From a virus, in the IMG/VR virus record IMGVR_UViG_3300014325_000010, positions 33,130 to 97,129 of that record: a stretch of DNA of 64,000 bases. One strand, given 5' to 3'. The translations under genes and the position numbers were made by a program. Position 1 is the stretch's first letter. Every line of letters begins with the position of its first letter. Below, one piece after another: positions 1-38,357 of the stretch. The notes beneath the pieces were generated by a model that saw nothing but the letters and a program-made list of their open reading frames with translations, did not search any database and was not told the origin of the DNA.

Positions 1-2847
1 GATACCGTTTGTAATTTCGCTACCAGTTGCATCTGCTTTAGTCCCAAAACCCTTAACATTAGCATAAATTGGTGCAGCTTCATTACTTACAGCAGTCCAA
101 GTAACAGATCCATCTGTTAGTGTTACACCAGATGCTGGAACTGTCAAAGTATCACTTGATCCAGTTGTGCCAGCTGTAGTACATAACAAAAATTTACTTT
201 GACCATCAACCATATTAGATGCTGGACTTACTGCATCACCAACAGAATAAGCAGTTGTTGCAGCCCAAGAGTCTTTTTGTAATGATGATCCTCCATCTAT
301 TGCAGCAGCTCTCCAACCATCCACTAAGACCAGTGTATAATCGTTGCCACCAATTGTAACAAATTTAGCTCCTCCAGGAACAATATCTGTCCATGTAGAT
401 GAATATGGCCACCAAGTATGCGGATCTGCATCTGGGATAGCTACTCCGCCTTGAAATAGATCGAGGTCATGAACAGCATGGCCACAAACCATAAAGGCAT
501 GTTTGGTTAAGCTGTTGATTGTTACTTCACCTACATCATAGAGTAGTAACGCCCCTTCCGTTTCAATCACATCTCCAGCAATAATTGGAATACCAAATCC
601 AAGAGTTTGCGTTGGACAATTTGGAAAATCATCTTGATTAGTGATTCTTTGCGGAATCATTTTCTCATCCGCAAATAAAGAATAGTCGATACTGATAACA
701 TCATTAGCAGTCACTTCAACTGCTAAATCCTCTTTTAATGCATCCGTATAAACTGGCCCTTGAAATAATAATCGTTGATACCCTCGATTTTTTCGAGTGT
801 CATCATCTACCAAATAAGTATAGAATTGCGCAGAAACCAGATCTCCTCGAGTAAGACCACGAATGATACGATCAGTATCTGCAAAGACTGCAGTCGCGGT
901 TTGTGCTTGCCACGACCTAGTGAGCCAGTCCGATGCTACTCGAGAGATATCTGAAATAGACAGTAGTCTCGGTTCTGTGTAGCCACCATAATATCCATCT
1001 TGATTACGAAGTGCTCGAGTTGCTGCTTGCGTTACATTTCCGTTTTCATCTACTAGTGCCACCCAAAATTGAGGGTGAGAGATTGAACAAGGATCTTCAT
1101 AGACAACATTGATTGCACAAGGATCTTTAATACGTAAAACTGTTGCACTATGATGTGTTATCTTACTCGAAGGTAATTGAGCAAGAATAATACTAGCACT
1201 ATGCTGAGTAACTCTTGTTGATGCTGGCTGCGTTAAAATTACTGTAGCACTATGTTGTGTAACAGCAGTTTTTGCTGGAACAAGGGCAATATCACTAATA
1301 TTGACATTTTCGCTGAGAGAAGCTTCAATCGTTCGAGCAACTGTAACTGTATCGTGAACTTTTATATTCTCTGTACGAATAACATCATTTGGATCAATTC
1401 CAAGAATAGGAGTATCTTGTATCTTAAGAGATTCTGTTAAAGAAGTAGCAAGGCTACCTGAACTAGTGACTTGGTCCTGTACTTTTAGAGTATCAGTAAC
1501 AGAAGCGCCTAATGGATCAAGTAACTCATCAATTGACTGCGATATTTTAAGTGACTCTTGTGTACTAAGATTGAGATCATTACCAGCAGATTTGAACGTT
1601 GCTATACCAACAGCTTCGCTAACAGAAACTGCACCTTCTGTGAATCTAAAATTGTATGCTCCCGTTGAAGAAACTAATCTCCACGAAAAGATGAGACCCT
1701 CTGGACTACTGTCGGCAAGAGCAACATCATTCCACAGTCCACCTGTATTAGTTGTAGAATAAGATTGTTGGGTGCCGTGTGATTGAGAAGAACCACCTAG
1801 CAATAACTCATTTGCTTGACTAGTAGTTGCTGTTGCTCCTGAAGTTTTTGGATTAGCAGAACTAAGGCCACTTGAGACCTTATCTAGTGATGATGAAGCA
1901 TCAATACCAGAAAATTCCATAACACCAAACGAACACGCACTGGATCCGCCAGTAGGTGTTAGCGTGAATGTGTGACTTGACCCTCCTGTAATGTTTTCTC
2001 CATAAAATTGTCCGGCAAATGTACCAGCCCACGCACCAAGAAATGTATTGCCCTTATTATCTGAAACTTGAGTGCCAACCGTAGTTGAGAATGTTCGAGT
2101 AAAGCTTGTACCAAATGCAGAAATAAAGTTTCCTGAAGTAGTGGTCATCCCTGCTGTGGTAAGAGATGTGGCAGCACTACTTGTTGCACTTGCGGACTGA
2201 ACGAACGCTATCGAACTACCTTTAAACGTCGATATACCAATGCGTTCTGTGACACTCGCTTGACCATATCCTGAGAAGAAGGTATACGCACCGGTAGCTG
2301 CAACAATCGAATATGACGAGAGAAGACCCTCTGGCAAATTATCAGGTAACGAAATTTGATCGATAAAAAATCCCGGAATACTGGCAGGAGGGTCAGATCC
2401 GGTGTTAACGCCCCCAATACCAAGCAAAAGTTCGTCAGCTTGGGTCGTTGTAGCAGTATTACCAGAATCTTTTATAAAGGAAGATGAGTTAGTAAACGCA
2501 GTTTTATCGAGAGAACTTACTGTCGCAACCTGCGAAAATTCTAAAACAATAAGTGATAATGACCCAGAACCACCTCCTGGTCTAGTAAACGTGACTGTTT
2601 GACTGCCGCTTCCAGCAATATTTTCAAGATAATAGATTCCTGCTCGTCCTGACCCTGAGTTATTTAATCCGGCATTTAGCCAAGTGCCTGCTCCAGAATC
2701 GGATACTGGAGAACCTGATAGCGTAACAACATTACATCCAACACCAGCAGCTAAAAAATTTCCAGATGTAGAAACAAACGACGCCGTCGTGATAGACGAC
2801 GCCGAAGTTGTCTGGACTGTCTTAGCCTGTACAAATGCCGCGCTCAT
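1..2847 (-). CDS. Putative tail fibre / receptor-binding protein, partial (C-terminus lies beyond the window start). It has two internally repeated LamG/concanavalin-like segments.
   Basis: ATG at 2845-2847 (reverse complement ATGAGCGCG = MSAAFVQAK...). Open minus-strand frame runs to position 1 and is missing from the ORF track only because it has no stop in the window. Translation is S/T/G-rich, with two similar segments (..GSGSLSLIVLEFSQVATVSSLDKTAF.. and ..GGSSACSFGVMEFSGIDASSSLDKVSSGL..). It sits last in the tail module. Confidence 0.55.
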   Translation of the reverse strand, partial: MSAAFVQAKTVQTTSASSITTASFVSTSGNFLAAGVGCNVVTLSGSPVSDSGAGTWLNAGLNNSGSGRAGIYYLENIAGSGSQTVTFTRPGGGSGSLSLIVLEFSQVATVSSLDKTAFTNSSSFIKDSGNTATTTQADELLLGIGGVNTGSDPPASIPGFFIDQISLPDNLPEGLLSSYSIVAATGAYTFFSGYGQASVTERIGISTFKGSSIAFVQSASATSSAATSLTTAGMTTTSGNFISAFGTSFTRTFSTTVGTQVSDNKGNTFLGAWAGTFAGQFYGENITGGSSHTFTLTPTGGSSACSFGVMEFSGIDASSSLDKVSSGLSSANPKTSGATATTSQANELLLGGSSQSHGTQQSYSTTNTGGLWNDVALADSSPEGLIFSWRLVSSTGAYNFRFTEGAVSVSEAVGIATFKSAGNDLNLSTQESLKISQSIDELLDPLGASVTDTLKVQDQVTSSGSLATSLTESLKIQDTPILGIDPNDVIRTENIKVHDTVTVARTIEASLSENVNISDIALVPAKTAVTQHSATVILTQPASTRVTQHSASIILAQLPSSKITHHSATVLRIKDPCAINVVYEDPCSISHPQFWVALVDENGNVTQAATRALRNQDGYYGGYTEPRLLSISDISRVASDWLTRSWQAQTATAVFADTDRIIRGLTRGDLVSAQFYTYLVDDDTRKNRGYQRLLFQGPVYTDALKEDLAVEVTANDVISIDYSLFADEKMIPQRITNQDDFPNCPTQTLGFGIPIIAGDVIETEGALLLYDVGEVTINSLTKHAFMVCGHAVHDLDLFQGGVAIPDADPHTWWPYSSTWTDIVPGGAKFVTIGGNDYTLVLVDGWRAAAIDGGSSLQKDSWAATTAYSVGDAVSPASNMVDGQSKFLLCTTAGTTGSSDTLTVPASGVTLTDGSVTWTAVSNEAAPIYANVKGFGTKADATGSEITNGI

Positions 2848-3447: not shown

Positions 3448-3450
3448 AGC

Positions 3451-4581: not shown

Positions 4582-4584
4582 GGT

Positions 4585-22137: not shown

Positions 22138-22308
22138 TAAATGCTGGAATTCTAATTCTAATAAAACAAACAGCCTTCAATTTGCCTAATTCCCAAGTTT
22201 CACATAATTCGACAGGCTCTGTTTCAAAAGAGTCACGCCAAAGAAATAAGCTGCCAGTTGGCCAATCATTAGGTTCTTCTAATTCTTTTGTACCATCACG
22301 GTAATATT

Positions 22309-23984: not shown

Positions 23985-25135
23985 AATTCGTCAATTTCAG
24001 CAGGAGTAACAGCTAAATTTGGTCGAAGTCGAACACACTTTTCACCTGTAGGAATCATAATAGTTGCAGATCCCCACATGGCTTCAACAAAATAGTCACG
24101 TTCCGAACGACTTTCAAAATCAATGGCTAGAAGTAAACCCACACGACGACATTTTAATCCTAGACTGATTAATCTTTCTTCGAGGAGCTGACCTTTCGTT
24201 TCCACACTTTGTAAGATTTTTTCTTTTTCGTATACTTCGAGGATTGCTCGACAACGAATCATGTCCATGACATCACCGTCCCAAGTAACTTCAAGACGTG
24301 CTGGATCATCAAAAATCTTACTAAATTGTGTCTTAACCATAATCCCAGATACTTGTGTCTTTTTACCAAAGACTACAATATCTGGTACGATACCAATTCG
24401 TTCAAAATACCACATAGAACCTGTTCCACCAAATCCTGTTTGAATTTCATCAAAGATTAGTGGAATACAATTTTCACTGCACAGCTTACGTAATTCCAGA
24501 ATTAATGCAGTATTAAATACAAGATCTCCAGATGTACATTGAATTGGTTCAATCAGAATACCTGCAATATTACCAGATTTTACATAGGTAGTACATTGTT
24601 TTAGCAAAAGTTCAATATTTTGTGCATTTGGATTAGCCACTTCACAAGAATTGCTAGAGTAAAAACCAGCAAGTCTTTTTGATGCCGGACCAGTTCTAGA
24701 AGCTAGGAATCCACCATACCCATTGATACCATGAAAATTATTTGTGAATATAAGCATTTCGCCATGGTGTCTCAAAATAGCAGTTTTAACCGCTGCTTCA
24801 ATAGCTAATGCTCCGGTACAACAGAAATGAAAATAAGCAAATTCTGCCATTGATGGATGTAATGTAAATGCTGAAATAAATTTTTCAGCTTCCAAACTAT
24901 CCATTTCACAGTTTGCCACCTTCACAGTGGAGTGTAAAAACATCTCATTGATATATTCCACTTTATGGAATATTGGATGATTATAACCAATAGGTAAAGA
25001 AGAATACATACCAAAGAAATCTAAAATCTCTCGCTGTGTATTAACATCATATACATAGGAGCCATGACTTTTAGATAAGTCAGCTTTAATATTGAATTTA
25101 GATGAACGATGAGATTGTTTAATCATGATACACAT
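23942..25135 (-). CDS. PLP-dependent aminotransferase, class III-like
   Basis: 397 aa. IFDEIQTGFGGTGSMW and VVFGKK (candidate Schiff-base Lys) are hallmarks of class III aminotransferases. Confidence 0.7.
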   Translation of the reverse strand: MCIMIKQSHRSSKFNIKADLSKSHGSYVYDVNTQREILDFFGMYSSLPIGYNHPIFHKVEYINEMFLHSTVKVANCEMDSLEAEKFISAFTLHPSMAEFAYFHFCCTGALAIEAAVKTAILRHHGEMLIFTNNFHGINGYGGFLASRTGPASKRLAGFYSSNSCEVANPNAQNIELLLKQCTTYVKSGNIAGILIEPIQCTSGDLVFNTALILELRKLCSENCIPLIFDEIQTGFGGTGSMWYFERIGIVPDIVVFGKKTQVSGIMVKTQFSKIFDDPARLEVTWDGDVMDMIRCRAILEVYEKEKILQSVETKGQLLEERLISLGLKCRRVGLLLAIDFESRSERDYFVEAMWGSATIMIPTGEKCVRLRPNLAVTPAEIDEFCVRAAYTMMGARV

Positions 25136-26195
25136 GTATTACTTTGTCTCGACTAACTGCGAGACGGGTTGCTCGACTATCTCCAGTAACTGTGATTTGA
25201 TGCCATGTACCTCGAGGGATAGAAATGATATCTCCTTTATTTGCGATTATCTTTTTATCTTCAATTACGTACTCATATTGACCTTCGAGAATTAACCACC
25301 ATTCATCCCAGTCTGGATGATAATGACGTCGATTACCTTCTTTTGGTAATTGGCTAATAACTGTCGCCGAATTACTTGGTTTCTGTATTACACGTCTTGC
25401 TCCACCATTTACAGGCAAATCGGCAAGTAGTTGGTCTAGATTAATAGAATTCTGTACTGATAAGTCAATGTCTCCAACACCATCATGATACAATACTTCT
25501 ACCGCGTTAGATTCAGAGTGTTCTGTTGGGGACCAATAGCGATTGATTGCGCGTGATTTACGTCTTTCGAGAATAGCTTCTGCCAGTTCAAAATCTCCCT
25601 GTGTGTCAATGTCTAATGCAGAATCTCCATCTAAAACTAGATGAGAAACTCTACCAGAACTATAACCATAGGTACTTGTAAAATCCTTCCACGCAAAAAT
25701 CCCATTACACATAATGTCTATAGGACGTAGTTGTTGCGATGGTAACATTGGTTTGAATGGATTAAAGTTGGTAGGGGTTCCTTGAATAAAAGCTTCTGCA
25801 TAGAGACGTTTTACTGATAAAACTGTATTAGCACCATCAAGGATTAGATCTCTGGCACGATGTAGATCAATTCGAGAAAGAAATGGGGAGGTTGGTGTGA
25901 TCTGGAATAAAACATCACACGGAACATCTTCTAAAAAACTTGGGATAAAATGTTCACTTGTAGCAGAGTCCACAGCTAATTCTGGTTGACGATGATAAAA
26001 CTTGACACCCAAAGATTTAGCAAGATCTCCTAAGATATCTGCTTCAGAATTAATATAAACCTCATCAAATATTTTAGAATCTCTAGCTGTTTCAACTACC
26101 CAAGAAATTAGAGGTTTATCTCCTAAGAATCGAAGATTCTTAAGTGGAATTCTTGTACTACCAAGACGTGCAGGAATCATAGCCACATATTTCAT
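25119..26195 (-). CDS. CMP-sugar cytidylyltransferase (CTP_transf_3: KdsB/NeuA/PseF-like) fused to a C-terminal cupin domain
   Basis: 358 aa. N-terminal MKYVAMIPARLGSTRIPLKNL is the acylneuraminate/CMP-Kdo cytidylyltransferase signature. C-terminal HYHPDWDEWWLILEGQYEY...GDIISIPRGTWHQI is a cupin two-motif pattern. Confidence 0.7.
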   Translation of the reverse strand: MKYVAMIPARLGSTRIPLKNLRFLGDKPLISWVVETARDSKIFDEVYINSEADILGDLAKSLGVKFYHRQPELAVDSATSEHFIPSFLEDVPCDVLFQITPTSPFLSRIDLHRARDLILDGANTVLSVKRLYAEAFIQGTPTNFNPFKPMLPSQQLRPIDIMCNGIFAWKDFTSTYGYSSGRVSHLVLDGDSALDIDTQGDFELAEAILERRKSRAINRYWSPTEHSESNAVEVLYHDGVGDIDLSVQNSINLDQLLADLPVNGGARRVIQKPSNSATVISQLPKEGNRRHYHPDWDEWWLILEGQYEYVIEDKKIIANKGDIISIPRGTWHQITVTGDSRATRLAVSRDKVIHVYHD

Positions 26196-26839
26196 TCGAG
26201 TACCACCCGACCTTGTTGTGATCCTTCTAGAAAAATTTCGTAACCAGATTTGTAAAGAAGTTCTACCGTTTGAATACGCATTAACTCATGAGTTGGAGGA
26301 TGCCATTCAATAAACAACTTTGGTTTATTCTTTAGTGCTTTAGTCATTCCTTTGAACGCTAAATCCTCAGCTCCCTCGATATCCATTTTTAGAATGTCAA
26401 CTTTAGTGTCTTGTAGAATTTCATCTAGTGTAGTTGTATCAACTGTAAATCGAAAACCTACACTGTGATAACAGCCTTCAAACGAAAGTGATACACCAAC
26501 ATCTGGTTTAATCGCTTCACGTTTTACAGAACTATCAGATACTGCTAATGGGTAAATTTTCACATTTGGATAGGATTTCATCCAATTTTGCAGTAGTTCA
26601 AATCGTATTCGTTCGGGTTCAAAAGCAATTATTTGAATATCAGGTGGGCCATATTTTAATGCAAGACTGATGTAAAATCCGTATTCCGCACCACAATCTA
26701 CATAAACTTTAGCCGTTTTAATTCTATGGATAAATTGAGAAGTAAATGATTCCCATCTAATATTTGATTGTTCACGACCAGTTACCATTGATGAAAGAAT
26801 ATCATCAATAGCTGCTAACCCAAATTCTCGTTCAGTCAT
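26192..26839 (-). CDS. FkbM-family SAM methyltransferase
   Basis: 215 aa. VYVDCGAEYGFY and DILKMDIEGAE motifs. Confidence 0.65.
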   Translation of the reverse strand: MTEREFGLAAIDDILSSMVTGREQSNIRWESFTSQFIHRIKTAKVYVDCGAEYGFYISLALKYGPPDIQIIAFEPERIRFELLQNWMKSYPNVKIYPLAVSDSSVKREAIKPDVGVSLSFEGCYHSVGFRFTVDTTTLDEILQDTKVDILKMDIEGAEDLAFKGMTKALKNKPKLFIEWHPPTHELMRIQTVELLYKSGYEIFLEGSQQGRVVLE

Positions 26840-26842
26840 AAA

Positions 26843-27301
26843 TTACAGTGGTTGCTTAACCCACACCCAATGACCTTCACCAAATCCAACTCGATAGTAA
26901 TTTTGATAATCTGGTGGTTTTACCTTAACACGTTCACCTGTTTCATTAGCTTCTATTAGAGTCCAACCATTAGCATTTAACACAGGTTCGAGGGATAATA
27001 GTGTGTTTTGCCCAAAGGGCATACCGACAGTTATTTGTCGAAACCATGTTTCTGGATTTATTTCTCCTGGCACATAAATTGGAATAGCAGAATTTGCAGA
27101 CGCACCTGCAGTTGATTCAACTTCTGAAGTTTCTGGTTTAGACGATTCTTTTTCCGCTTGTGGTTTAGAAGGCACGATTCCTCCAAAATCTAATTTTGTT
27201 AATTCACCATTTTCTTCAGACCATAACGTGAATGGTGCTTCTTCACTATCTGTCCAAGAAGCAATAGTAACACCATTAGAATTTTTTAACATGATCTTCA
27301 T
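26843..27301 (-). CDS. Hypothetical protein
   Basis: 152-aa ORF within the sugar-gene block. Acidic/Ser-rich middle. Confidence 0.4.
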   Translation of the reverse strand: MKIMLKNSNGVTIASWTDSEEAPFTLWSEENGELTKLDFGGIVPSKPQAEKESSKPETSEVESTAGASANSAIPIYVPGEINPETWFRQITVGMPFGQNTLLSLEPVLNANGWTLIEANETGERVKVKPPDYQNYYRVGFGEGHWVWVKQPL

Positions 27302-27908
27302 CGTAGCTCCTTACCATAAATGAGCAGTAAACCCAGTGTAACATCATCATACTAACATCTTCAGCTAACGCCGGATTATCAGTACCCAACACTATTTTCA
27401 AATGTGCATACTCTGAGACAGATCCTTTATTACCAACAATTGCAACAGATCTCATTCCACGTTCGTTAGCCCGTCGAATAGCCTTGGCTAGATTTTTACT
27501 ACACCCTGAAGCAGATACTGCAATAAAGAGATCATATTCTTTTGCTAAAGCAGATAATTGTATCGCAAACATATCTTCATAACCAAAATCATTTACAGCC
27601 GCTGATAGCATCATACCTGCATTAAGCGAATAAGCTCTATTACAATATCCAGTTTCACGCAAAATATTTAAAGACATCCCTAGTGCAAAATGATCTGCTA
27701 CTGTAGCTCCGCCACCATTTCCAGCAATAAATATTGTATTCTGTTTTTCGTGGGTTTCCTTCACAATTTGCCGAAGTTTTTCGGCATCTGCAGATGGAAA
27801 CCGTTTTGTAATTTCTGCGATAGCAGCAAAATAGTCATCACAGGTTTCGTTAATTACCATTGCTGTAAGGCCTCCCAATCTGGCGTCCACGGAATACCTC
27901 CGTCCCAC
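27276..27908 (-). CDS. SIS-domain sugar-phosphate isomerase (GmhA/KdsD-like)
   Basis: 210 aa. IFIAGNGGGATVADHFALGM and DLFIAVSASGCS match phosphoheptose-isomerase-type SIS motifs. Confidence 0.7.
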   Translation of the reverse strand: MGRRYSVDARLGGLTAMVINETCDDYFAAIAEITKRFPSADAEKLRQIVKETHEKQNTIFIAGNGGGATVADHFALGMSLNILRETGYCNRAYSLNAGMMLSAAVNDFGYEDMFAIQLSALAKEYDLFIAVSASGCSKNLAKAIRRANERGMRSVAIVGNKGSVSEYAHLKIVLGTDNPALAEDVSMMMLHWVYCSFMVRSYDEDHVKKF

Positions 27909-28567
27909 GGTGCTACTAATTTTACCATATGACCTTTATAAGCATCTTCTGGTAATGAAAACGGTTTCATATTCCCGGTACCATATCCTGGGCTGTAATT
28001 GTCATACACAGCAGCAATAGCACTTCTGGTTTCATAATCCTTAATCACAAATTTGTGATGTTCAATAGTAACCGGTGCTCGTTCACCACCTCCAAAAGGA
28101 GATCCAGCGTGAACACCAAAACGGTCACCAGATTTTGCTTTAATTGACAAACGGGTTTGATAATCTGGGAATAATTGTGGAGTCATAAGCACGGACTTAC
28201 AATGATCCCACATATGCGCTCGAGGAAATTCCCAATGATCCTGTTCTAGCCAACAATTATTAATTAGCCATTTTTCCATTGCAGGAGAAAGAGCCTCGTC
28301 ATCATCTATTCGCAGAATATAGTCTCCCTCACAATAAGCTAACGCTGAATTTAGGGAACTTTCAAGATATCCCTTAGATTTAACACATGCTATTTTCAGA
28401 TCAGCATTTGGTATATTAAGGGAGACTGCTTGATCAAATGCCATCGTTCCATCAGTGATCAAGACAAATTCTGTTGACTCTAATTTATCTGCTAATTGAG
28501 CAAGTTTTAAAATGAATGGTCTTGCACACCATTCCATTTTAGATATGCACAGAATGCTTAATTTCAT
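27854..28567 (-). CDS. Glycosyltransferase, GT-A fold (GT2-like)
   Basis: 237 aa. N-terminal Rossmann-like segment and DxD-type YILRIDDDE. Confidence 0.55.
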   Translation of the reverse strand: MKLSILCISKMEWCARPFILKLAQLADKLESTEFVLITDGTMAFDQAVSLNIPNADLKIACVKSKGYLESSLNSALAYCEGDYILRIDDDEALSPAMEKWLINNCWLEQDHWEFPRAHMWDHCKSVLMTPQLFPDYQTRLSIKAKSGDRFGVHAGSPFGGGERAPVTIEHHKFVIKDYETRSAIAAVYDNYSPGYGTGNMKPFSLPEDAYKGHMVKLVAPWDGGIPWTPDWEALQQW

Positions 28568-28648: not shown

Positions 28649-29017
28649 TTACGGAGCAGTTGCCTTCTGTGTTATAAAATTTCCCCAAGCAAGAACTGTT
28701 TCACTGCCGTCATCCATTCGTTTCCAGCTATGTCGATAAGTCCCTGCTTTGAATTTATTCATATCCTCATCAGTAACAACGACGATTGCCCGTTGTGTAT
28801 TTGCACTGCGAGTTGCACTGTAAGTACCAGTGATTGTTGGAGTAAAACTTAAAATTGGTGGTGAAGGTGAAGCATCTAATTTACGTACATCAAATCTGAG
28901 TACCCACCCCGTCATATTGATAGGCACTAAATTTAAATCAATAAGTTCCAATCGAAACGTCTTATCTTCTCCAACAAACAGAACTCCATCTCCGCCAATA
29001 GGTGCATCTAGAGCCAT
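28649..29017 (-). CDS. Hypothetical protein, translationally coupled to the giant repeat protein
   Basis: 122 aa. Start codon overlaps the stop of 29017-33588. Confidence 0.45.
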   Translation of the reverse strand: MALDAPIGGDGVLFVGEDKTFRLELIDLNLVPINMTGWVLRFDVRKLDASPSPPILSFTPTITGTYSATRSANTQRAIVVVTDEDMNKFKAGTYRHSWKRMDDGSETVLAWGNFITQKATAP

Positions 29018-32000
29018 TAGACTTCCTCCCCTCCTACGATATCGATCGTTTCTACCACAGTTCCAATTGCATCTATCACAGTTTGTGAACTACCAACCAC
29101 ATCGATAATGCCTGATTGATACTGACCTAAAATATCAATCGTAGTTATATAGCTCCCAACCACATCGATTATTGTTTGATAAGAACCAATTACATCAATC
29201 GTAATTGGTGTTCCTGCACCAACAGGACCATCCTTAATCCGTAAAGATTCAATGAGTATAACTTCAAGATCTCGAGAAGCTTGAACCGAATCACTAATCT
29301 TTATTGTTTCAGAAGTAATTTCAGTTACAATACTATCGATGTATATGACAACAATATCAGCTATCGCAACATTTTCTATAGCAAGAACACTAAGATCAAT
29401 TCCAACAATTACTGTGTCATGAACTTGAAGATTTTCATCTTGCACCCGAAGTTCAAGTGGATTGATCTCTGTGGTAACAGTATCTTGAATCTTAACTGCT
29501 TCCGTCAGTAAACTCGAAATATCCGCAGTAATTAGTGCTGAAACTGAATCAACAACTTTAACAGTTTCATTTATTGATGCAATTTCGGGATTTAAGACAA
29601 CCGTAATATCGTCAGAGATTTTTAAAGATTCTGTGACACTAGTTATTTCACCAAGAGAAGGTGTAAGTGAATCAGATACTTTAACCGATTCACTAAGATT
29701 AGCAGAAAGATCAATACTGACTAAAATTGTATCAGCGACTTTAAGTGATTCAGTCTGCGTTACTGAAATGTAATCAACAGCAGCTTGAACCGAATCAGCT
29801 ACTTTGACTGATTCAGAAATATTAGCTGTAAGATTAACAGTTATTGAAGCAGTAACCGTGTCAACAACTTTAACAGATTCCGTTAATGTTGTCTGCTCTG
29901 GATTGATCAGAGTAGAAACTGTATCAGCAACTTTAACTGATTCAGATTGACTTGTTTCCTCCGGATTAAGAATAACACTAATCGTATCTGCGATTTTAAC
30001 AGATTCGATTTGTGTTATCTGTTCTGGATCTAAAGTTACCGAAACACTGTCTGCAACTTTTAGCGACTCACTTTGAGTTGTTTGTTCAGGATTAAGAACT
30101 GTAGAAACAACATCTGTAATCGAAAGTGGTTCTGTAAGTGAAGTCTGCTCAGGATTTATGAAAGCCAATACAGTGTCTACGACTTTAACCGAGTCGATTA
30201 AGAGAACTGATTGCGAATCAATCAGAGCCGTAATCGTATCAACAACTTTAAGATTCTCAGATTGAGTCGTTTGTTCTGGATCTAAAGTCGTTGAAATAGT
30301 ATCAGCAACTTTTATCGAGTCAGATTGTGAGGTTTCCTCGGGATTTAACGTTGTCGCGGCAAGGTCAACAACTTTGAGAGATTCTGTAAGCGAAATCTCT
30401 TCTGGATTTAATGTGGCAGCTACAGAATCAGAAACTTTCAAGGTTTCTGTTTGTGCAGCTTGTTCCGGATCTAAGGTTGTGAAGACGCTATCAACAACCT
30501 TTAGAGCTTCTGATTGTGAAGCTTGTTCTGGATTTAAGAGTGTGCTAACATTATCAGAAATTTTTACATTTTCAATTACGGAAGTCTGTTCGGGGTCTAA
30601 CGTAACCGAAACACTGTCCGCAACTTTAAGTGATTCCGTTAGTGAAACAATTTCATCGAGGATAGCAGTGACACTGTCCGCAACCTTGATCGTTTCAGTA
30701 CTAGACGCTTGTTCTGGATCTAATGTTGTTGTGACAGTGTCAACAACTTTAATTGGCTCTGTTTGTGAAGTCTGCTCCGGATCTAAAACAGTATTAACAC
30801 TGTCTACGACTTTGAGCGATTCAATAACTAATGTTTGTTCAGGATTTAGTGTAGTTGCAACCGTATCACTTACACTAAGATTTTCTTCGAGATAAATAAA
30901 GTCTGGATTTAGACGAGCATTAACTGGACCATCAGCAATTTGAATCGATTCGTTAGAAATTAAAGTGCCGGCACCTATAGAAGCCGCAATACTATCAACA
31001 ACTGAAAGTGATTCAGCAGGAACAGCTACCGGCCGCGGATTTTCGTCCGCAATTGGTGTATCTTGAACAATTACGTTTTCAGTAAGGGATACGTCAATAT
31101 CTCTCGAAACAGTGACCGTGTCACTAATTACAAGTGCTTCCTGAACAGAAGTCTGTTCGGGATTCAAGCTTGTCGAAGGAGTGTCAACTACCCTGAGCGA
31201 TTCTGTTTGTGTGGTTTGCTCTGGATTAAGTGTTGTTGATACGCTATCTGCAACTTTTAACGACTCTGTCAGTGAAACGAGTTTGTCAAGAATCGCAGTA
31301 ACAGTATCTGCGACTTTTAAGGATTCAGTCTGTGTGGTCTGTTCGGGATCTAAAGTCGTGATTACAGTATCAACGACTTTAAGCGATTCTGTCTGTGAAG
31401 CCTGCTCTGGATCTAATATTGTGAATACGGAGTCAGCAACTTTTACTGATTCAGATAGAGAAACAATTTTGTCGAGATCAGCAGTAACAGTGTCTGCAAC
31501 TTTTAATGATTCTGTTTGTGTGGCTTGCTCTGGATCTAAAGTAGTGAAAACGGAATCAACAACTTTGAGAGAATCACTCTGTGACGTCTGTTCGGGATTA
31601 AGAAGTGTTAAAACACTATCGGCAACTTTGACTGGTTCCGTTAGTGAAACAACTTCATCTGTGATAGCAGTAACAGTGTCAACAACTTTTAATGAATCAC
31701 TTAACGAACTTTGTTCTGGATCTAAAGTAGTTGTTACAGTGTCAACAACTTTAAGAGAATCTGTAGCAGAAGTTTCCTCCGGATTAAGGAATGCGAGAAC
31801 AGTATCTGCTACTTTAACTGGTTCTGTTAACGAAGTTTGCTCGGGATTTAAAGTTGTAAGAACAGTATCAGCAACTTTGAGAGCTTCTGTTACAGTAGCT
31901 TGCTCTGGATCTAAAGTCGTCGAAACGGTATCAACGACCTTTAAAGAATCCGAAGTTGAAGTCTGTTCAGGATCTAAAGTAGTTGAAACTGAGTCTACAA

Positions 32001-33588
32001 CTTTTAACGATTCACTTACAGAAGTCTGCTCGGGATTAAGAGTGGTGAAAACAGTGTCAGCAACTTTAAGAACTTCTGTTATCGAAGCATTTAAATCTAT
32101 GCTGGCAGTAAGAGTATCAACAACTTTAAGAGATTCAGTTTGTGTTGTCTGTTCAGGATCTAACGAAATAGTAGGAGTGTCAACTATTTTAAGTGATTCT
32201 GTTTGTGACGTCTGTTCTGGATCTAAAGTTGTGAGTGGTGCGTCCGCAACCTTAACATTTTCCGTTAACGAATTCTGTAGAGGATCTAAAGTTGCAAAAA
32301 CTGTATCAGCAACCTTTAACGTTTCAGTTCGAGAGGATTCCTCTGGATTAAGATTTGTTGTGACATTATCCGCAATCTTAAGTGGTTCGCTTAAAGAAGT
32401 TTGTTCTGGATCAAGAGTAGTAAGCGGAGTATCTATAACTTTGAGTGGTTCAGTGAGTATGGTCTCTTCAGGATTTAGAAAAGTAGTAACAGTGTCTGCT
32501 ACCTTGATAATCTCAGATACAGACGCATTTATATCTATAGAAGCAAATACTGTATCAGCAACTTTAAGCGAATCCGTTAAAGATGTCTGTTCTGGATTTA
32601 AAGTTGTAAACGGAGTATCAACAACTTTTAATGATTCAGTTGGACTTGCTTGTTCTGGATCAATAAAGGTAGATACAGTATCTGCAATTTTCAATGACTC
32701 AGATACAGAAGTTTGCTCTGGATCTAAAGTAGCAGTTACAGTATCAGCAACTTTTAAGGAATCGGATACTGAGATTTGTTCAGGATCTAAAGTTGTTAGA
32801 ACAGTGTCAACAACTTTAAGCGATTCGGTAATTGACGACTGTTCGGGGTCTAACTTGGTAAGAACAGTATCAACAACCTTTAAAGAATCCGAAACAGATA
32901 CTTGCTCCGGATCTAAAATAGCAAATACACTATCTACCACCTTTAAAGATTCAGATACAGAAGTCTGTTCTGGATCTAAGGCAGGAGTTACTGTATCAAC
33001 GACCTTTAAAGATTCTGTCTGTAATACTAATTCAGGGTCTATCTTAGCAAGAACAGTATCAGAAATTTTTATAGATTCGGTTAATATCGTTTCTTCTGGG
33101 TTTAGAAGAATCGTAACCGTATCAGAAACTTTTACATTTTCTTGTAAACTTGTTTGTTCTGGATTTAAAGAAGCAGTAACAGTATCTACTACTTTAAGAG
33201 ATTCAGGTCCTGCTGTTTGAGAAAGATCAGTACCTGTTATAAGAGCTGCAATAACAGGACCATCAGTTACGTGTACGACACCAAGTAATTGTGCTATTCC
33301 TTGGTGAAAATCAACGATTTTTAAAGATTCCGATAAAGATACACCAAGGATGAAATCATCCTTGATTTCGATATTTTCTGTCAGAACAGACGTGGGTTGT
33401 AGCGGCGTCAACTCTGCCGTTACAGTATCTGTAATTTTTAAATTTTCAGTGGAGGATGCCGAAGGACCAGAAGTAGTGACAGACGCCGTCACCGTATCAG
33501 TAAGGCGTATGCCTTCTGAATAGTAACGGCCGTCGTCTATTCTTATTGTTTCTGGAGTAACTACTATGGAGAGATCAGCCATGCGCAA
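29017..33588 (-). CDS. Giant repetitive fibre-like protein (1523 aa, about 65 tandem 21-aa repeats with consensus xSLKVVDTVxTxLDPEQTSxx)
   Basis: A single minus-strand ORF spans 4.5 kb. Translation shows 21-aa periodicity (63-bp diverged DNA tandem repeats), each unit carrying conserved L-K-V-x-D and D/N-P-E-Q-T/S. The C-terminus has a distinct approximately 10-aa IDVVGSYxTI repeat. The opposite-strand ORFs in this span are repeat artefacts. Confidence 0.8.
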   Translation of the reverse strand: MRMADLSIVVTPETIRIDDGRYYSEGIRLTDTVTASVTTSGPSASSTENLKITDTVTAELTPLQPTSVLTENIEIKDDFILGVSLSESLKIVDFHQGIAQLLGVVHVTDGPVIAALITGTDLSQTAGPESLKVVDTVTASLNPEQTSLQENVKVSDTVTILLNPEETILTESIKISDTVLAKIDPELVLQTESLKVVDTVTPALDPEQTSVSESLKVVDSVFAILDPEQVSVSDSLKVVDTVLTKLDPEQSSITESLKVVDTVLTTLDPEQISVSDSLKVADTVTATLDPEQTSVSESLKIADTVSTFIDPEQASPTESLKVVDTPFTTLNPEQTSLTDSLKVADTVFASIDINASVSEIIKVADTVTTFLNPEETILTEPLKVIDTPLTTLDPEQTSLSEPLKIADNVTTNLNPEESSRTETLKVADTVFATLDPLQNSLTENVKVADAPLTTLDPEQTSQTESLKIVDTPTISLDPEQTTQTESLKVVDTLTASIDLNASITEVLKVADTVFTTLNPEQTSVSESLKVVDSVSTTLDPEQTSTSDSLKVVDTVSTTLDPEQATVTEALKVADTVLTTLNPEQTSLTEPVKVADTVLAFLNPEETSATDSLKVVDTVTTTLDPEQSSLSDSLKVVDTVTAITDEVVSLTEPVKVADSVLTLLNPEQTSQSDSLKVVDSVFTTLDPEQATQTESLKVADTVTADLDKIVSLSESVKVADSVFTILDPEQASQTESLKVVDTVITTLDPEQTTQTESLKVADTVTAILDKLVSLTESLKVADSVSTTLNPEQTTQTESLRVVDTPSTSLNPEQTSVQEALVISDTVTVSRDIDVSLTENVIVQDTPIADENPRPVAVPAESLSVVDSIAASIGAGTLISNESIQIADGPVNARLNPDFIYLEENLSVSDTVATTLNPEQTLVIESLKVVDSVNTVLDPEQTSQTEPIKVVDTVTTTLDPEQASSTETIKVADSVTAILDEIVSLTESLKVADSVSVTLDPEQTSVIENVKISDNVSTLLNPEQASQSEALKVVDSVFTTLDPEQAAQTETLKVSDSVAATLNPEEISLTESLKVVDLAATTLNPEETSQSDSIKVADTISTTLDPEQTTQSENLKVVDTITALIDSQSVLLIDSVKVVDTVLAFINPEQTSLTEPLSITDVVSTVLNPEQTTQSESLKVADSVSVTLDPEQITQIESVKIADTISVILNPEETSQSESVKVADTVSTLINPEQTTLTESVKVVDTVTASITVNLTANISESVKVADSVQAAVDYISVTQTESLKVADTILVSIDLSANLSESVKVSDSLTPSLGEITSVTESLKISDDITVVLNPEIASINETVKVVDSVSALITADISSLLTEAVKIQDTVTTEINPLELRVQDENLQVHDTVIVGIDLSVLAIENVAIADIVVIYIDSIVTEITSETIKISDSVQASRDLEVILIESLRIKDGPVGAGTPITIDVIGSYQTIIDVVGSYITTIDILGQYQSGIIDVVGSSQTVIDAIGTVVETIDIVGGEEV

Positions 33589-33778
33589 TCACTCCTGCGG
33601 GCGGAGGGTCAGCCCCAGTTTGCCCTATAGTTGCTTTTTGCGCTTCCTGAACCGGAGTAGAATCGGGAGATTCCGGCAAAGGAATTGTTACTTTCACAGG
33701 TTCTGGAGGTGCACATTCAATAAGTTGTGCACTTACAATATCTGAGACACCAACTGGTCGTTCATCCAATGGCATAAA

Positions 33779-34984
33779 CTAACTCAACCTAGCAAAGATT
33801 CCAGCACCAACTTGTGGACTTGAGCTCATGTTAACATTTTCATTAGCTGGAGTATAATCCACATAAATGCCCATAAAACAAACACAGGCTACTCTAGTAG
33901 TAACATCTGTTTTTATCACTTTCATAACTGGTGAAGAACCAATTACAACAGATGGGTTATCAATAAATTGGCCAGCAACAGTTTCACTCGACCAATGATT
34001 ACTAGAACTATTAGTATTTGCATATAAACCATGAGCTCCGGCATCACTCCCAACACCATTACCAGCTGCGCCCAAAGTTAATGCGTTTACTATTGGATTA
34101 CTAGTAAGTTCTACAGTTCCAGTTTTTGTTCCAGTTTGAATATCTTCACCATGTAGAAGTACAATCTGAATAGCATTGATTTTATCCGAAGCTTGTATAC
34201 CACCGCTAGAATAAGCCGCAATTGTCGCAGCATAAGCTGCAGATCCACTAGAAGATGCTGACTCAATATTAGTTGAATCCGTTTCATTTGCACTTGCTAC
34301 ACCTGGAGGTGGTAATGCACTTACTGATTGCCATAACCCTGTGTTAGTCGAACCTCCACCGCGTGTCCAATTAGTAACTAAACTGTCTCCAGTTGCAGTT
34401 AATAAGATAACTTTTCCAGGATCAGGAAATTGCGAATTATTAACAATTAAGTCATCAAAATAAACAGTGCATGCATCAGCTTCTGTTCCTGAAGCACCAA
34501 TCGCTGATGGAGCAGGCCATGTGGAAGGAGATCCGACCACTTCAGTAGAACCGTCTATTCTAAGAACAGGTACACTAGAGCCGTTAGCTTGACGAACTTC
34601 AATACGATAGAATCTTGTTGTGTCTGTTAAGCGTGTTGTAGATGTTCCAATACTAGTTGTAGCATTATAGTATTCAATGGAACCATTTGGGTTAAGACGC
34701 AAGTTAATTGTAGTAGTGCTACCAAAAATAACACGCTGAACACTAGAAGGTAAAACAGTTACACAAATATAGAATCGTATATATCCTGGTATAGCAATGA
34801 CTAGATTAGCCCAGGCTGCTACACCACTAGTCGCATTAATCTTTAACGAATGCGCACCACTGCGTACAATAGTTGACTCTATCGTAGCACCAGCAGTTAC
34901 TAGCACACACGAGTCAATTGATTGTCCAGTTGCTCTGGACAATGACTCATTTCCTTCCCAGCCACAAATAAGTGTTGTTGACAT
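33779..34984 (-). CDS. Putative structural (fibre/appendage) protein
   Basis: 401 aa, S/T/G/N/A-rich with low-complexity SSSGSAAYAATIAAYSSGG. Sits upstream of the giant repeat gene. Confidence 0.45.
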   Translation of the reverse strand: MSTTLICGWEGNESLSRATGQSIDSCVLVTAGATIESTIVRSGAHSLKINATSGVAAWANLVIAIPGYIRFYICVTVLPSSVQRVIFGSTTTINLRLNPNGSIEYYNATTSIGTSTTRLTDTTRFYRIEVRQANGSSVPVLRIDGSTEVVGSPSTWPAPSAIGASGTEADACTVYFDDLIVNNSQFPDPGKVILLTATGDSLVTNWTRGGGSTNTGLWQSVSALPPPGVASANETDSTNIESASSSGSAAYAATIAAYSSGGIQASDKINAIQIVLLHGEDIQTGTKTGTVELTSNPIVNALTLGAAGNGVGSDAGAHGLYANTNSSSNHWSSETVAGQFIDNPSVVIGSSPVMKVIKTDVTTRVACVCFMGIYVDYTPANENVNMSSSPQVGAGIFARLS

Positions 34985-35371: not shown

Positions 35372-36016
35372 TTAAAAAACGCTTGATCCTATTGTTGGCT
35401 CACCAAGAGCAGCGGTCAAACTATTGACTAAAACAGTCCCACCACCAAAATCATCTAATACTGCCCCTGGACGATCAATACTCATGCCAATAAAACCAGT
35501 ATTATATGTTCCATCTTGGCGTTGCATTAAACTATTCCATCCACTTCCTGTGTTTAAATATGCAGTTAATTGATCACCTATCTGTTCAAACCCTAGCTTA
35601 TCGCCATCGTTAAATGTTTGAAGTAAAGAAGCACCAAGCATAGTTGTTACATTATTATCAATTCGGTATATTTCACAATGTTGTACACCGCTAAAGATAT
35701 AAGCAACAACAAAGTATCCATCTACACCTGAAGTATCTGGAGAAACTACTGCAAGGTAAAGTGCAACTCCTTGATCAGTAAAACAGGTTGTCATTGTAAG
35801 CCAAACTTCAGCATTTGGCCCAAAAGAGCTTGTATTCCAATAAGATTCACTTGTAACCGAAGAACTAGTAGTAATAACTGCGTTCGATTGAAGAACTAAT
35901 GAAAGATCTGGGGGAACACTCAAAAATAACGGGCCTAGCCAATTACCACCATCCAGTGGATTTTCGTTCGCTCGGTTAAACCGATCTAAGATCGTAAGAT
36001 TTGTTGGAAATGACAT
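35372..36016 (-). CDS. Hypothetical structural-module protein
   Basis: 214 aa, beta-rich. Start overlaps the upstream gene stop (36016). Confidence 0.4.
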   Translation of the reverse strand: MSFPTNLTILDRFNRANENPLDGGNWLGPLFLSVPPDLSLVLQSNAVITTSSSVTSESYWNTSSFGPNAEVWLTMTTCFTDQGVALYLAVVSPDTSGVDGYFVVAYIFSGVQHCEIYRIDNNVTTMLGASLLQTFNDGDKLGFEQIGDQLTAYLNTGSGWNSLMQRQDGTYNTGFIGMSIDRPGAVLDDFGGGTVLVNSLTAALGEPTIGSSVF

Positions 36017-36501
36017 TAGCTAACTCTAGCGTCTAACCTATCAACAGATTCGCAAGCTTGGACATCCCCATCAAGAATAATTGTATCACTACCAGCATCA
36101 TATCGAGGCTTTAACCGACGTGTAGCAAGAAACCGCAACGCATCTCCAATTGTCACTTGTGCTAGATTAGGAAACCTCGTATCGACTTCTGTAGCTGTGT
36201 ATCCTGCATTGATAATCAACGTTCTTATGGCAGAACGTTGACCAGCGGTTAGAGAAGAAAGCGGGTCATCTAATCGAGAAAGTGGCACACGTGTTACACC
36301 AGTTAATGCATTAATTAGAGTAAGTGTCGCTGACGAAGCATTAACCTTAACAATGGCTTGATTTCCTAAAACTTCAACTTCAGACCAATTACCTCCATCG
36401 GCCAGAATTTGTGAAGTTAGATCATCAACGATAACATAACGAGCCACACGATTACTAAGAGTTTTTCTCGCATACGGTGCGATAAAATATGCTATTGGCA
36501 T
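36016..36501 (-). CDS. Hypothetical protein
   Basis: 161 aa. ATG overlaps the stop of 36501-37409 (ATGA-type junction). Confidence 0.4.
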   Translation of the reverse strand: MPIAYFIAPYARKTLSNRVARYVIVDDLTSQILADGGNWSEVEVLGNQAIVKVNASSATLTLINALTGVTRVPLSRLDDPLSSLTAGQRSAIRTLIINAGYTATEVDTRFPNLAQVTIGDALRFLATRRLKPRYDAGSDTIILDGDVQACESVDRLDARVS

Positions 36502-37409
36502 TAGTACATTACTCCAGTTCCGCGATCTACATGCTTAAATACCAGCGAAGTATCAATAATATAAGGATATTCTTTAGCGGCAAACTTTCCCCAACCTGCC
36601 TTTTTCAATAGTCCGCGTTTAATTGTTTCGCCACTCCACCAAAGATCAGATGTGCCGGAAGCAACGTGGACGCCACCATTTTCAATCCAAACCCTAGCAG
36701 GCTGCTGAAAAATCTTTTTCAACGGAAATGGGTATCCAGGAAGCGTATACATTTCAACGTCTTCTTCCTGAGCCCAGGCTTCGAGGATAGACCGATGAAG
36801 GAGCAATGCACCTGTTGGCACGCCGTCCACCCAGATTACGTCGCCGTATTTCCAATCACGGTAAGCTCGAGTTCCGCCACCTCGGTATGCAAGAGGTTCC
36901 GGACCAAGTAGTTCAATACCACCTTTCTTGCCATTTCGAATTTCGGCGGAACCCTTGATATGGTACAAACCACTCACAACGGGAGGAGCCTTTTTACGTT
37001 CCATCTTCCAGAACCACCTGTCGAAAACAAGCAGCGTTTCCGGAGGTGGACATGTATCATCTTCGATAAGAATTAATGCTCTAAATGGACCACGAAGTAT
37101 CGTGTCTACAAGCAGATTTTGAGCATCAGCGACATTATAACCCATAGGCGTGGATCGCACCACACTGAAGTTTGGTGGTGTGACCATACCTACCATCATA
37201 TTGTACCATTCGATGCGTACAGTCCCTAGTGTTGGTGTGCCAATCAATACTTGGACACTGGTATTTGAAGCTTTTGGATTAACTGGATTCAAGGCAATAT
37301 TAGATTGTTTACGTGCAAGTTTGGCCTGTTTTCTCATAAAGGGTGTTGTAACTCCCGACCATCCACTTGCAGCAACTTGCGAAACTGAACTAATTGACTT
37401 TTCACTCAT
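36501..37409 (-). CDS. Putative glycosyltransferase (GT-A-like)
   Basis: 302 aa. VQVLIGTPTLGTV followed by LILIEDDTCPP (DxD-like acidic motif). Confidence 0.4.
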   Translation of the reverse strand: MSEKSISSVSQVAASGWSGVTTPFMRKQAKLARKQSNIALNPVNPKASNTSVQVLIGTPTLGTVRIEWYNMMVGMVTPPNFSVVRSTPMGYNVADAQNLLVDTILRGPFRALILIEDDTCPPPETLLVFDRWFWKMERKKAPPVVSGLYHIKGSAEIRNGKKGGIELLGPEPLAYRGGGTRAYRDWKYGDVIWVDGVPTGALLLHRSILEAWAQEEDVEMYTLPGYPFPLKKIFQQPARVWIENGGVHVASGTSDLWWSGETIKRGLLKKAGWGKFAAKEYPYIIDTSLVFKHVDRGTGVMY

Positions 37410-37633
37410 AATTTGTCTTCGTCCGCTAGTACAACTTTATTTTCTTTTAACACAGCATATACATGTTGATAAATGTCTGCTATGCTCGTACAACCTAGAA
37501 TTGCTGCTCGACGGTATCCTTCTTCTTTTAATGGAGCACATCTTTCACATGCCCAAAACATACTAGCGGTCCATTCATTGCACCACCAGCATCTATGCAT
37601 GTTTGTATTCCCCGATGCGCTCGAGCCAACCAC
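37406..37633 (-). CDS. Small zinc-ribbon protein
   Basis: 75 aa, CWWCNEW...CERC. Confidence 0.35.
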   Translation of the reverse strand: MVGSSASGNTNMHRCWWCNEWTASMFWACERCAPLKEEGYRRAAILGCTSIADIYQHVYAVLKENKVVLADEDKL

Positions 37634-38357
37634 CTGGATTCATTGTTAGCAAATATCGTTCACACACTGGATCCTGTCGCCATTCATTTGGATGCAAATT
37701 CAAATAATCTTCAACACCACCTCTTGCACCGCGGTCACCATAACGACCTTCTTCATCAGGCACCCAAGCAATATTTGTGTCTTCAACCACAAGACGATCA
37801 CCTACGCGGCACATAGGTGCGTAGAGTTCAAGTTCTTTGAGGACATGAGCTGCAGAGTGATCTGCATCAAGGCTAACTAAGAGAGGGTACTGGATCTCCT
37901 CTCGAATAGCATCAGCTAACCGTGGATCAGTAGAATCACCAGCTAAGAATACAATTCGAGGGTGATTACACTTAACACGGTCTTCAAAGTCAATTGTGAA
38001 GATTTTACCATCTTCAATTTGCAAAGAGTCCATCAAAAACGCAAACCACAGTGCGGAAGCACCAGCATAAGTTCCCGTTTCAATAATGGTTTTCGGTTTG
38101 TGATCATTAATCAAAGCTTGGTAAATCCAAAGGTCATTTGGACACTTCATCATACCAATACCAAGAAAATGAGTATAATGCCAGGTATGTGGTGCGTTAT
38201 ACCACACCTCATGGTATTGCTGAAGAAGTTTACCGTGTTCTTCACGTGTTCGTAGAATTCGTTGTTCTAATTCAGCAATAGAAATAGAAGCATCTTCATC
38301 CACTATGGTAAGTGGCTGTACGCCCGGAATTTTAGGATTAATTGTTGATGTGCTCAT
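37593..38357 (-). CDS. CmcI-family (cephalosporin hydroxylase / rhamnosyl O-methyltransferase-like) SAM methyltransferase
   Basis: 254 aa. IIETGTYAGASALWFA ... LVSLDADHSAAHVLKELELYAPMCRVGDRLVVEDTNI. Confidence 0.65.
   Translation of the reverse strand: MSTSTINPKIPGVQPLTIVDEDASISIAELEQRILRTREEHGKLLQQYHEVWYNAPHTWHYTHFLGIGMMKCPNDLWIYQALINDHKPKTIIETGTYAGASALWFAFLMDSLQIEDGKIFTIDFEDRVKCNHPRIVFLAGDSTDPRLADAIREEIQYPLLVSLDADHSAAHVLKELELYAPMCRVGDRLVVEDTNIAWVPDEEGRYGDRGARGGVEDYLNLHPNEWRQDPVCERYLLTMNPGGWLERIGEYKHA

Follow-up and report, generated by a model that had tools for sequence, protein, structure and literature searches.

Within a window of 64,000 nucleotides, taken from the IMG/VR virus record IMGVR_UViG_3300014325_000010 (positions 33,130 to 97,129 of that record), the minus strand carries a gene for a long protein built largely from a 21-residue repeat (29017..33582). 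We consider it reasonably probable that the product of this gene is a fibre shaft on the virion of an uncultured siphophage with a long tail, a fibre that would probably sit at the neck and be held by a C-terminal anchor and a 122-residue immunoglobulin-like (Ig-like) partner protein. Read in this way, the object is a phage accessory fibre with an Ig-like adaptor, which is a known type, built from an undescribed repeat family. An earlier note on this DNA had proposed a long fibre, and the proposal fits three observations: the gene lies in the late structural operon, its homologs carry lectin, beta-helix or adaptor domains, and its 122-residue partner has a collar/fibre-anchor fold.

The repeat array and its family

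The open reading frame (ORF) is found exactly where the earlier note placed it (29017..33588, minus strand), and it gives 1523 residues if read from a TTG codon. The start is more likely the ATG at 33582 (MADLSIVV...), with a product of 1521 residues, because this ATG overlaps the stop of a 66-residue upstream ORF (ATGGCTGA) and equals the 1521-residue metagenome gene call. The product contains neither Cys nor Trp and is strongly acidic (255 acidic and 74 basic residues, net charge about -181). Ser and Thr make up 25.9% of the protein, a share at the upper end of what the family shows (median 19%); the four residues Thr, Val, Ser and Ile account for ∼47%, and Gly for 1.6%. The GC content of the gene is 38.3%, compared with 43.7% for the window, and a scan for promoters and terminators around the gene found nothing exceeding shuffle expectation. 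Two plus-strand ORFs, 30374..30895 (173 residues) and 31181..33220 (679 residues), are antisense shadows of the repeat: they read as CSGSKVV...-type repeats, and their tblastn matches fall on the antisense strand of homologous genes. Such shadow ORFs could be mis-called as genes.

The 21-residue period claimed in the earlier note is borne out quantitatively: residue identity at a lag of 21 is 0.377, compared with 0.092 ± 0.007 in 1000 shuffles (z = 40). A hidden Markov model (HMM) of the unit finds 60 units between residues 50 and 1437 (29278..33441, minus strand), with spacings of exactly 21 residues in 42 cases, 20 in six, 19 in two and 22 in two, while a looser regular expression yields 64 anchors. 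The tandem array thus stands, but the count of about 65 repeats given in the earlier note is slightly high. Among 41 clean units the consensus is L K V [AV] D [TS] V x T T L [DN] P E Q T S x [TS] [ED] S. K2 and D5 never vary, and P13 is found in 39 of the 41; variant 20-residue units without the Pro turn (..LDKIVSLTES) also occur in the array. The units form two regular blocks (residues 131-818 and 904-1238) and degenerate near both ends of the array. An irregular middle segment (residues 819-903; 30880..31134, minus strand), containing a second DGPV-type element, parts the two regular halves. A 42-residue variant double unit (LKIVDFHQGIAQLLGVVHVTDGPVIAAL...; 33199..33324, minus strand) recurs in homologs as ..DDGGFVELxGLGNPIxxxDGPVxAxL...

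The copies are well separated at the DNA level, in agreement with the divergence claimed in the earlier note: mean unit-to-unit identity is 55.5% for protein and 61.4% for DNA (DNA maximum 82.5%), and the longest exact direct repeat within the gene is 20 nucleotides. Tandem Repeats Finder detects arrays that match at only 62-76%, among them a 186-nucleotide higher-order repeat (21+21+20, or 62 residues) at 31202-31829. Scans of the protein against Pfam, NCBIfam and PHROG returned no named family. It matches phrog_33488 (E 4.8e-19), and the PHROGs of the family (33488, 17957 and 17702) are each labelled 'unknown function'. When PDB sequences were searched, either with the protein alone or with a profile of 10 units, a marginal myosin rod fragment was the sole match. 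At the sequence level, then, the repeats belong to no known Pfam or PDB family, and the exclusion of collagen-like, Big/Ig and classical beta-helix types also holds, given the Gly content, the period and the empty Pfam scan.

To model the fold, we submitted ten units, taken from an in-register alignment of 14 non-overlapping segments, to AlphaFold2 (AF2) as a monomer. The model is of low confidence (predicted local distance difference test, pLDDT, 46.7) and all-beta with two strands per unit, placed at positions 16-21 plus 1-3 and at positions 6-11, with turns at V4-D5 and D12-P13-E14-Q15. Hydrophobic residues are best conserved at positions 1, 3, 7 and 11, which alternate in a strand-like manner. 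We propose that each unit may form two beta-strands joined by these tight turns, with L1, V3, V7 and L11 in the core, and that the units would stack into a long rod, probably a homo-oligomer. The length of such a rod would be about 30 nm for a solenoid rising 4.8 Å per unit, whereas a trimer of the beta-spiral type could reach about 80 nm. Idealised monomeric solenoids usually get confident predictions, and intertwined homo-oligomers are the norm for phage fibres; the low AF2 confidence may be read as weak evidence for an intertwined homo-oligomer.

The 21-residue repeat may represent a new fibrous fold. It is instructive to compare it with the triple beta-spirals of adenovirus and reovirus, curli CsgA and the RTX beta-roll, all of which share short strand-turn-strand repeats with alternating hydrophobics. 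As in beta-spirals and two-sheet beta-solenoids, the predicted turns hold Pro, Gly or Asp, and a period of ∼20 residues fits one coil or spiral repeat. However, beta-spirals have a period of 15-17 residues with a G/P turn, unlike the 21-residue unit, and both the Q/N/G motifs of curli and the GGxGxD motif of RTX proteins differ from the shaft consensus; no sequence match to these was found.

A word-seeded search identified 37 homologs of the shaft protein. The consensus, for which the earlier note had suggested metagenomic phage proteins as the place to look, is carried by 659 cluster representatives at E≤1e-3 (68 of them at E≤1e-30) in an exhaustive profile search of 1.84 billion proteins. 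Positions K2, D5, L11, [DN]12-P13-E14-[QE]15 and E20 are kept in 183 homolog units and in the window protein. The names of the homologs are uninformative, the few given being 'hypothetical protein'. Against 50,697 deposited phages, megablast and tblastn returned nothing for the flank, the whole protein, a 209-residue fragment or the 122-residue partner, and the closest cultured portal is just 34% identical. By these searches the repeat family has no description in Pfam or PDB and no member among cultured phages.

Typical homologs are 850-1250 residues long and have at most 26 rather irregular units, preceded by a globular N-terminal domain of ∼200-250 residues (at least three types) and followed by three tandem C-terminal repeats of ∼10 residues. 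Some contain inserted Laminin_G_3 (ConA-like lectin), Beta_helix/Pel9A-like (pectate-lyase-type) or Gly_rich_2 domains. Homologs P0007 and P0032 end in a PF23148 Gp77 domain ('Podophage GP4 fiber-tail adaptor protein gp77', E 1e-22 to 2e-23), and locus L001 has a separate Gp77 gene directly after its fibre gene. We regard these lectin, beta-helix and adaptor domains, as predicted, as hallmarks of host-recognition fibres.

Within this family the window protein is an outlier, with 60 regular units, six anchor repeats and no N-terminal head. Its first 135 residues align only with shaft regions of homologs, the HMM units begin at residue 50, and no globular domain of ∼200-250 residues is found at its N terminus. 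It is also the longest protein encoded upstream of a 122-residue gene, the runner-up having 1244 residues, in a comparison from which L012, L014, L016, L017, L020 and L022 were excluded.

A second protein containing the unit is encoded at 1..2847 (minus strand). Its gene follows the tape measure, in the tail-tip position, and is cut off by the left end of the window. Here 3-5 units at residues ∼440-520 form a linker, flanked by two N-terminal globular repeats of ∼210 residues and a large C-terminal domain; the protein is orthologous to P0034 (71% identity over the N-terminal 440 residues). Because the 21-residue unit also occurs as a short linker in this protein, it appears to be a reusable spacer module.

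The probable C-terminal anchor and its Ig-like partner

Over its last 62 residues (1462-1523; 29020..29205, minus strand) the protein switches to six tandem repeats of 10 or 11 residues, IDVVGSYxTx, with the general pattern (I/V)D(V/I)(V/I)G(S/Q)Y.T.; most relatives have three copies. This confirms the C-terminal 10-residue repeat reported in the earlier note, and the suggestion there that it acts as an anchor is strongly supported by comparison: the GxY repeat and the 122-residue gene are kept while the shaft is swapped. Upstream of the 122-residue gene, sister shafts consist of PIPAGSLDLTGRAPTLAFVL-type repeats of 20-22 residues (L006, L013, L015 and L019), a 24-residue repeat (L021), a 22/45-residue repeat (L009) or a mucin-like, G/S/T-rich sequence (L005), and GxY-type repeats end the upstream protein wherever the full gene was readable. 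Elsewhere in the LKVVD family the C-terminal triple repeat takes other flavours (FGDE..F, YRVRA, or RxIxIP followed by Gp77). Since the anchor is kept across unrelated shafts, the conserved functional pair would be the C-terminal strand repeats and the Ig-type partner. At the level of sequence, the shaft is shown to be exchangeable between unrelated repeat families of similar period, with anchor and partner conserved.

The gene for the partner (28649..29017, minus strand; 122 residues, collar/adaptor type) adjoins the fibre gene at its 3' end. Its ATG overlaps the fibre stop codon (TAATG), and its Shine-Dalgarno sequence (GGAGGGGAGGA) lies within the last codons of the fibre gene, so that the two genes are predicted to be translationally coupled. 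The protein has 143 homologs at 50-80% identity and is much better conserved than the fibre; in 5/5 sister or source loci examined, its gene directly follows a large repeat-protein gene. The AF2 model is a confident beta-sandwich (pLDDT 93.2, predicted template modelling score 0.85). Its best fold matches are Ig modules of collars and fibre anchors (P74-26 collar, T5 p132, BppU), and further top structural matches include BppU of Douge and TP901-1 and baseplate fibre proteins of 80alpha. Matches in BFVD comprise many phage proteins of ∼110 residues and the N-termini of 'minor tail proteins'.

A close parallel is phage GP4, whose adaptor is described as a 93-residue Ig-like protein present in 15 copies that ring the head-to-tail adaptor and hold three sets of fibres (PMC11445570). 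In both GP4 with gp77 (PF23148) and the family described here, a fibre protein is paired with an Ig-like module of ∼90-120 residues that is encoded adjacent to it or fused C-terminally, and the Gp77 gene of L001 occupies the same position as the 122-residue gene of the window. The systems differ in that GP4 is a podophage, whereas the window phage is a long-tailed siphophage whose shaft repeat is without a counterpart in the solved structures searched. The collar of P74-26 encircles the terminator at the neck (PMC12407722). The P74-26 (Oshimavirus) collar protein gp112 has two Ig domains and 9% sequence identity to the 122-residue protein, and the text consulted names no fibre on the collar (PMC12407722). 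A further comparison is with T5 pb1/p132 and the BppU N-domains of TP901-1, 80alpha and Douge, which are located on the distal tail or baseplate and encoded among tail genes. The window pair, in contrast, is encoded beside head and neck genes and has no sequence similarity to these proteins. T5 p132 is the collar that bears the L-shaped fibres.

These comparisons take the analysis beyond the earlier note in several respects: a head-less and expanded family outlier, a 122-residue partner, a probable orientation with the C-terminus proximal, and a second protein containing the unit.

Placement on the virion and possible glycosylation

Among the possible sites, a neck collar with fibres is the one we favour, at a roughly even chance. 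It is favoured because the fibre/122-residue pair lies far from the genes that follow the tape measure, as it does in all loci examined, and because of the best structural match and the Gp77 link. In L003, L006 and L007 the gene order is fibre, 122-residue gene, head-tail adaptor Ad1, other connector genes, GT1 glycosyltransferase, then terminator and tail tube. Where relatives have a fused Gp77 domain, their cassette comes directly after the terminase and portal genes.

The family architecture comprises a variable N-terminal head (globular, lectin-like or beta-helix), a repeat shaft, three short beta-strand-like C-terminal repeats and an Ig-like module that is either fused (Pfam Gp77) or supplied by the next, translationally coupled gene, here that of the 122-residue protein. 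In the window phage the shaft is roughly doubled (60 units) and the anchor doubled (six repeats), and the globular head is absent. We propose the following arrangement. The C-terminal repeats would dock the fibre onto a ring of the 122-residue protein; the likeliest site of this ring is the neck, where it would surround the head-tail adaptor, as modelled on GP4 gp77 and the P74-26 collar, and the N-terminus would point outward. The result would be a long, strongly polyanionic (about -181), Ser/Thr-rich whisker. It could provide an initial, reversible contact to polymers on the host surface, or could serve as a spacer or a sensor, and sugar genes of the phage itself may also glycosylate it. The whiskers of T4 fibritin and the phi29 head fibre gp8.5 are likewise accessory fibres of the neck or head with long repetitive shafts and are not primary receptor-binding devices. 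Both of these are helical (fibritin a coiled coil, gp8.5 a helix-turn-helix supercoil), whereas the window shaft appears to be beta-type and is Pro-rich.

Several observations weigh against this interpretation. The Pfam model of Gp77 does not match the 122-residue protein even at E≤1; in the same test L001, P0007 and P0032 score E 1e-17 to 2e-23. Direct alignment of the 122-residue protein with Gp77 sequences is poor, a PDB sequence search gave no link, and GP4 gp77 is not among its top structural matches. Because of the Pfam miss and the poor alignment, we call the protein a positional and fold-level analogue of Gp77 and not a member of that family; by our analysis the link to GP4 would come from position and from general Ig-like collar folds, which are common. 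In the window and in L005 the protease/scaffold and capsid genes separate the 122-residue gene from Ad1, and the window adds the sugar island. The neck placement is read only from gene order, and presence on the virion only from genes and comparisons. Because the AF2 model of the shaft is unreliable, its fold, length and oligomeric state are inferred, and a role in adsorption is speculative because the window protein has no receptor-binding head.

A possible but doubtful alternative, compatible with any placement, is that the shaft serves mainly as a scaffold for O-glycosylation by the phage's sugar pathway. Its content of Ser and Thr, high for the family, is consistent with this, as are the adjacent 8.5-kb sugar-metabolism island (20121-28567, minus strand), inserted between the fibre/Ig pair and the protease/scaffold gene, and the glycosyltransferase (GT) genes nearby. 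The island encodes a PseF-like cytidylyltransferase fused to a cupin, a GmhA-like SIS protein, a class-III aminotransferase (LAT-family-like), an FkbM methyltransferase, an MptE-like (Maf-type, weak) protein with Methyltransf_24, a radical SAM enzyme, a weak GT2 and a weak GT1, together with DUF6527 and ORFs of 150 and 152 residues. Maf proteins are candidate transferases that place pseudaminic acid on Ser/Thr of flagellin (PMC3426422, PMC4065374). Comparison of the relatives points in the same direction: a CmcI-type O-methyltransferase lies inside the fibre cassette in all of them, the shaft of L005 is mucin-like and G/S/T-rich, and GT1/GT4 genes occur among the connector genes of sisters (L005 15760-17616, L006 17850-19052, L007 17014-18255). 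This connector gene lies between the genes on the Ad1 side and those for terminator and tail tube, and its conservation suggests a clade-wide trait of virion glycosylation.

However, the MptE-like and GT2 matches fall under the Pfam thresholds (GT2 20 bits, threshold 23.3), the NCBIfam matches of the island are all far below cut-off except for the FkbM methyltransferase domain, and neither the MptE-like nor the GT2-like protein had a sequence match in the PDB. The earlier note had placed the repeat gene between a glycosyltransferase and fibre-like structural genes; this needs correction, since it is the 122-residue gene that adjoins it downstream, followed by the sub-threshold GT2-like gene. 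Moreover, the family does not conserve the Ser/Thr residues that follow the Pro turn (homologs often have Ala and Pro at positions 16 and 18), and sugar genes accompany every shaft type, so that they give no specific pointer to the shaft protein; their target could be the capsid, the tail tube, DNA or a host polysaccharide. Virion glycosylation in this clade is plausible, and the Ser/Thr-rich shaft is a reasonable candidate substrate.

Placement as a side fibre of the tail is unlikely, even with some structural evidence in its favour. The 122-residue protein would then be a collar on the tail tube or tip, similar to T5 p132, or would resemble a BppU N-domain at the baseplate. T5 p132, BppU of Douge and TP901-1 and the 80alpha proteins are indeed among its best structural matches, the BFVD matches include 'minor tail proteins', and the tail-tip protein (1..2847) also contains the 21-residue unit. 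The location of the pair beside head and neck genes sets it apart from T5 p132 and BppU.

We think it very unlikely that the protein decorates the capsid or forms a head fibre, in the manner of Hoc or phi29 gp8.5, with the 122-residue Ig protein on the capsid surface. Ig-like domains are common capsid decorations, and the cassette does lie inside the block of head genes: in the window and L005 it occupies the interval between portal and protease/capsid genes, and in L003 it directly follows the capsid gene. Nevertheless, the top structural matches are modules of collars, adaptors and baseplate anchors and not of the Hoc, pb10 or Dec type, and family members have fused Gp77 fibre-tail adaptor domains.

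A non-virion protein, whether a cell-surface adhesin of the moron type, an internal protein or an ejection protein, is highly improbable: virion association is itself predicted from genes, and highly acidic repeat proteins also occur as bacterial adhesins, but the shaft sequence is without an N-terminal signal-like hydrophobic segment, translational coupling ties the gene to both of its neighbours in the late structural operon, a fibre-tail adaptor domain is present in family members, and all contexts examined are phage-like.

Scarcely credible, finally, is a shaft of alpha-helical coiled coil with three heptads per unit, like T4 fibritin or myosin-rod-like fibres: 21 is 3 x 7, hydrophobics at positions 1, 4, 8, 11 and 18 may count as a/d positions, DPEQ is reminiscent of a helix N-cap, and the myosin rod fragment is the sole PDB match (E 0.13 with a single sequence, 1.2e-3 with a profile), but Pro occurs at four unit positions, breaking the heptads (in 183 homolog units, position 13 in 98%, 18 in 35%, 9 in 13% and 7 in 10%), the low-confidence AF2 model gives strands only, and the marginal myosin match spans about three units and is judged compositional. 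We rejected the coiled coil on the distribution of Pro, the Thr/Val/Ser/Ile content (∼47%) and the strand-like alternation of the conserved hydrophobics.

The virion-fibre interpretation can be extended to its fullest form: a modular fibre system, hitherto undescribed and probably located at the neck, that combines a conserved Ig-like collar, a conserved C-terminal triple-strand anchor and exchangeable shafts of unrelated 20-24-residue repeats that share one new fibrous fold, represented here by a shaft of about 60 units that has lost its head and forms a polyanionic scaffold coated with acidic glycans, via a CMP-sugar pathway and a Maf-like transferase, for adhesion or shielding. We regard this complete combination as decidedly unlikely.

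Phage fibres decide first contacts with the host and are the main raw material for host-range engineering. The analysis defines a rare and unannotated fibre family, with no Pfam entry, PDB structure or cultured representative, and points to a modular rule that joins swappable periodic shafts and heads to a conserved strand anchor at the C-terminus and to a small collar protein of the Ig-like type, a rule that could be reused for design and annotation. The window protein is an extreme case (the longest, head-less, about -181) and lends itself well to the question of how a bare shaft functions. Because the structural operons of the clade are unusually rich in sugar genes, they offer a natural test case for virion glycosylation outside actinobacteriophages. 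If the protein is only an ordinary accessory fibre, the gain is the annotation of several hundred 'hypothetical' proteins and of the 122-residue partner family.

Gene order around the fibre cassette

Within the structural block, which begins at about 48 kb and reaches the left window edge, all genes lie on the minus strand. In the direction of transcription they are the large terminase (TerL, 46227-47783), the portal (42963-44432), a block of unknown proteins (about 33.8-42.6 kb) that includes the CmcI-type O-methyltransferase (37593-38357), the 66-residue ORF with the repeat gene and the 122-residue gene (28649-33775), the sugar island, a DUF2213 protease/scaffold (18182-20032), an HK97/encapsulin-like capsid protein (DUF6260, 16621-17634), the head-tail adaptor Ad1 (15497-16075; phrog_477, E 9e-34), a GT1 glycosyltransferase (13855-15087), the major tail protein (12533-13033), the tail assembly chaperone (12052-12438), a tape measure of 2077 residues (5430-11663) and the distal tail genes (1-5433). 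No sheath gene was seen in the window, which points to a long-tailed siphophage. The phage is represented by metagenomic contigs of 112 and 161 kb.

The 66-residue ORF (33575..33775, minus strand) overlaps the ATG of the fibre gene and is translationally coupled to its start. Most relatives have an ORF of 52-66 residues at this position (L001 9804-9995, L003 9795-9986, L007 6910-7068, L023 9826-10008, L024 7651-7821), and only the L002 copy is similar in sequence to that of the window. Its product could act as a chaperone for the fibre or as a small linker.

Three unknown proteins of the cassette (36501-37409, 40844-41476 and 38354-38857, minus strand) are 63-91% identical to proteins of L001, L003 and L007, compared with about 35-40% for the fibre, and are probably core structural parts of the same module. 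Other upstream genes (33779-34984, 35372-36016 and 41517-42620, minus strand) encode stand-alone proteins specific to this phage. By eye, the endings of the 401- and 214-residue proteins recall ConA/LamG-like jelly rolls (..YFDDLIV and ..LDDFGGG), with no Pfam support, and a 367-residue protein carries DUF4082. These stand-alone proteins might supply the absent head of the fibre; Pfam (for the first two) and BLAST give no support, BLASTP having found no similarity of the upstream 401-, 123-, 214-, 161- and 302-residue and DUF4082 proteins to the N-terminal heads of the homologs.

In sister cassettes a GH5 cellulase-family protein is encoded upstream of the fibre (L003 5806-8366; L007 3697-6278), and the L003 cassette also contains a protein with a faint BNR (sialidase-repeat) match; these are possible virion-borne polysaccharide depolymerases. 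In two Gp77-fused relatives the gene that follows the fibre gene encodes 810-903 residues (L023 13568-16000, L024 11623-14334) and has a precomputed Pfam match to PI3_PI4_kinase, which is odd for a phage structural region.

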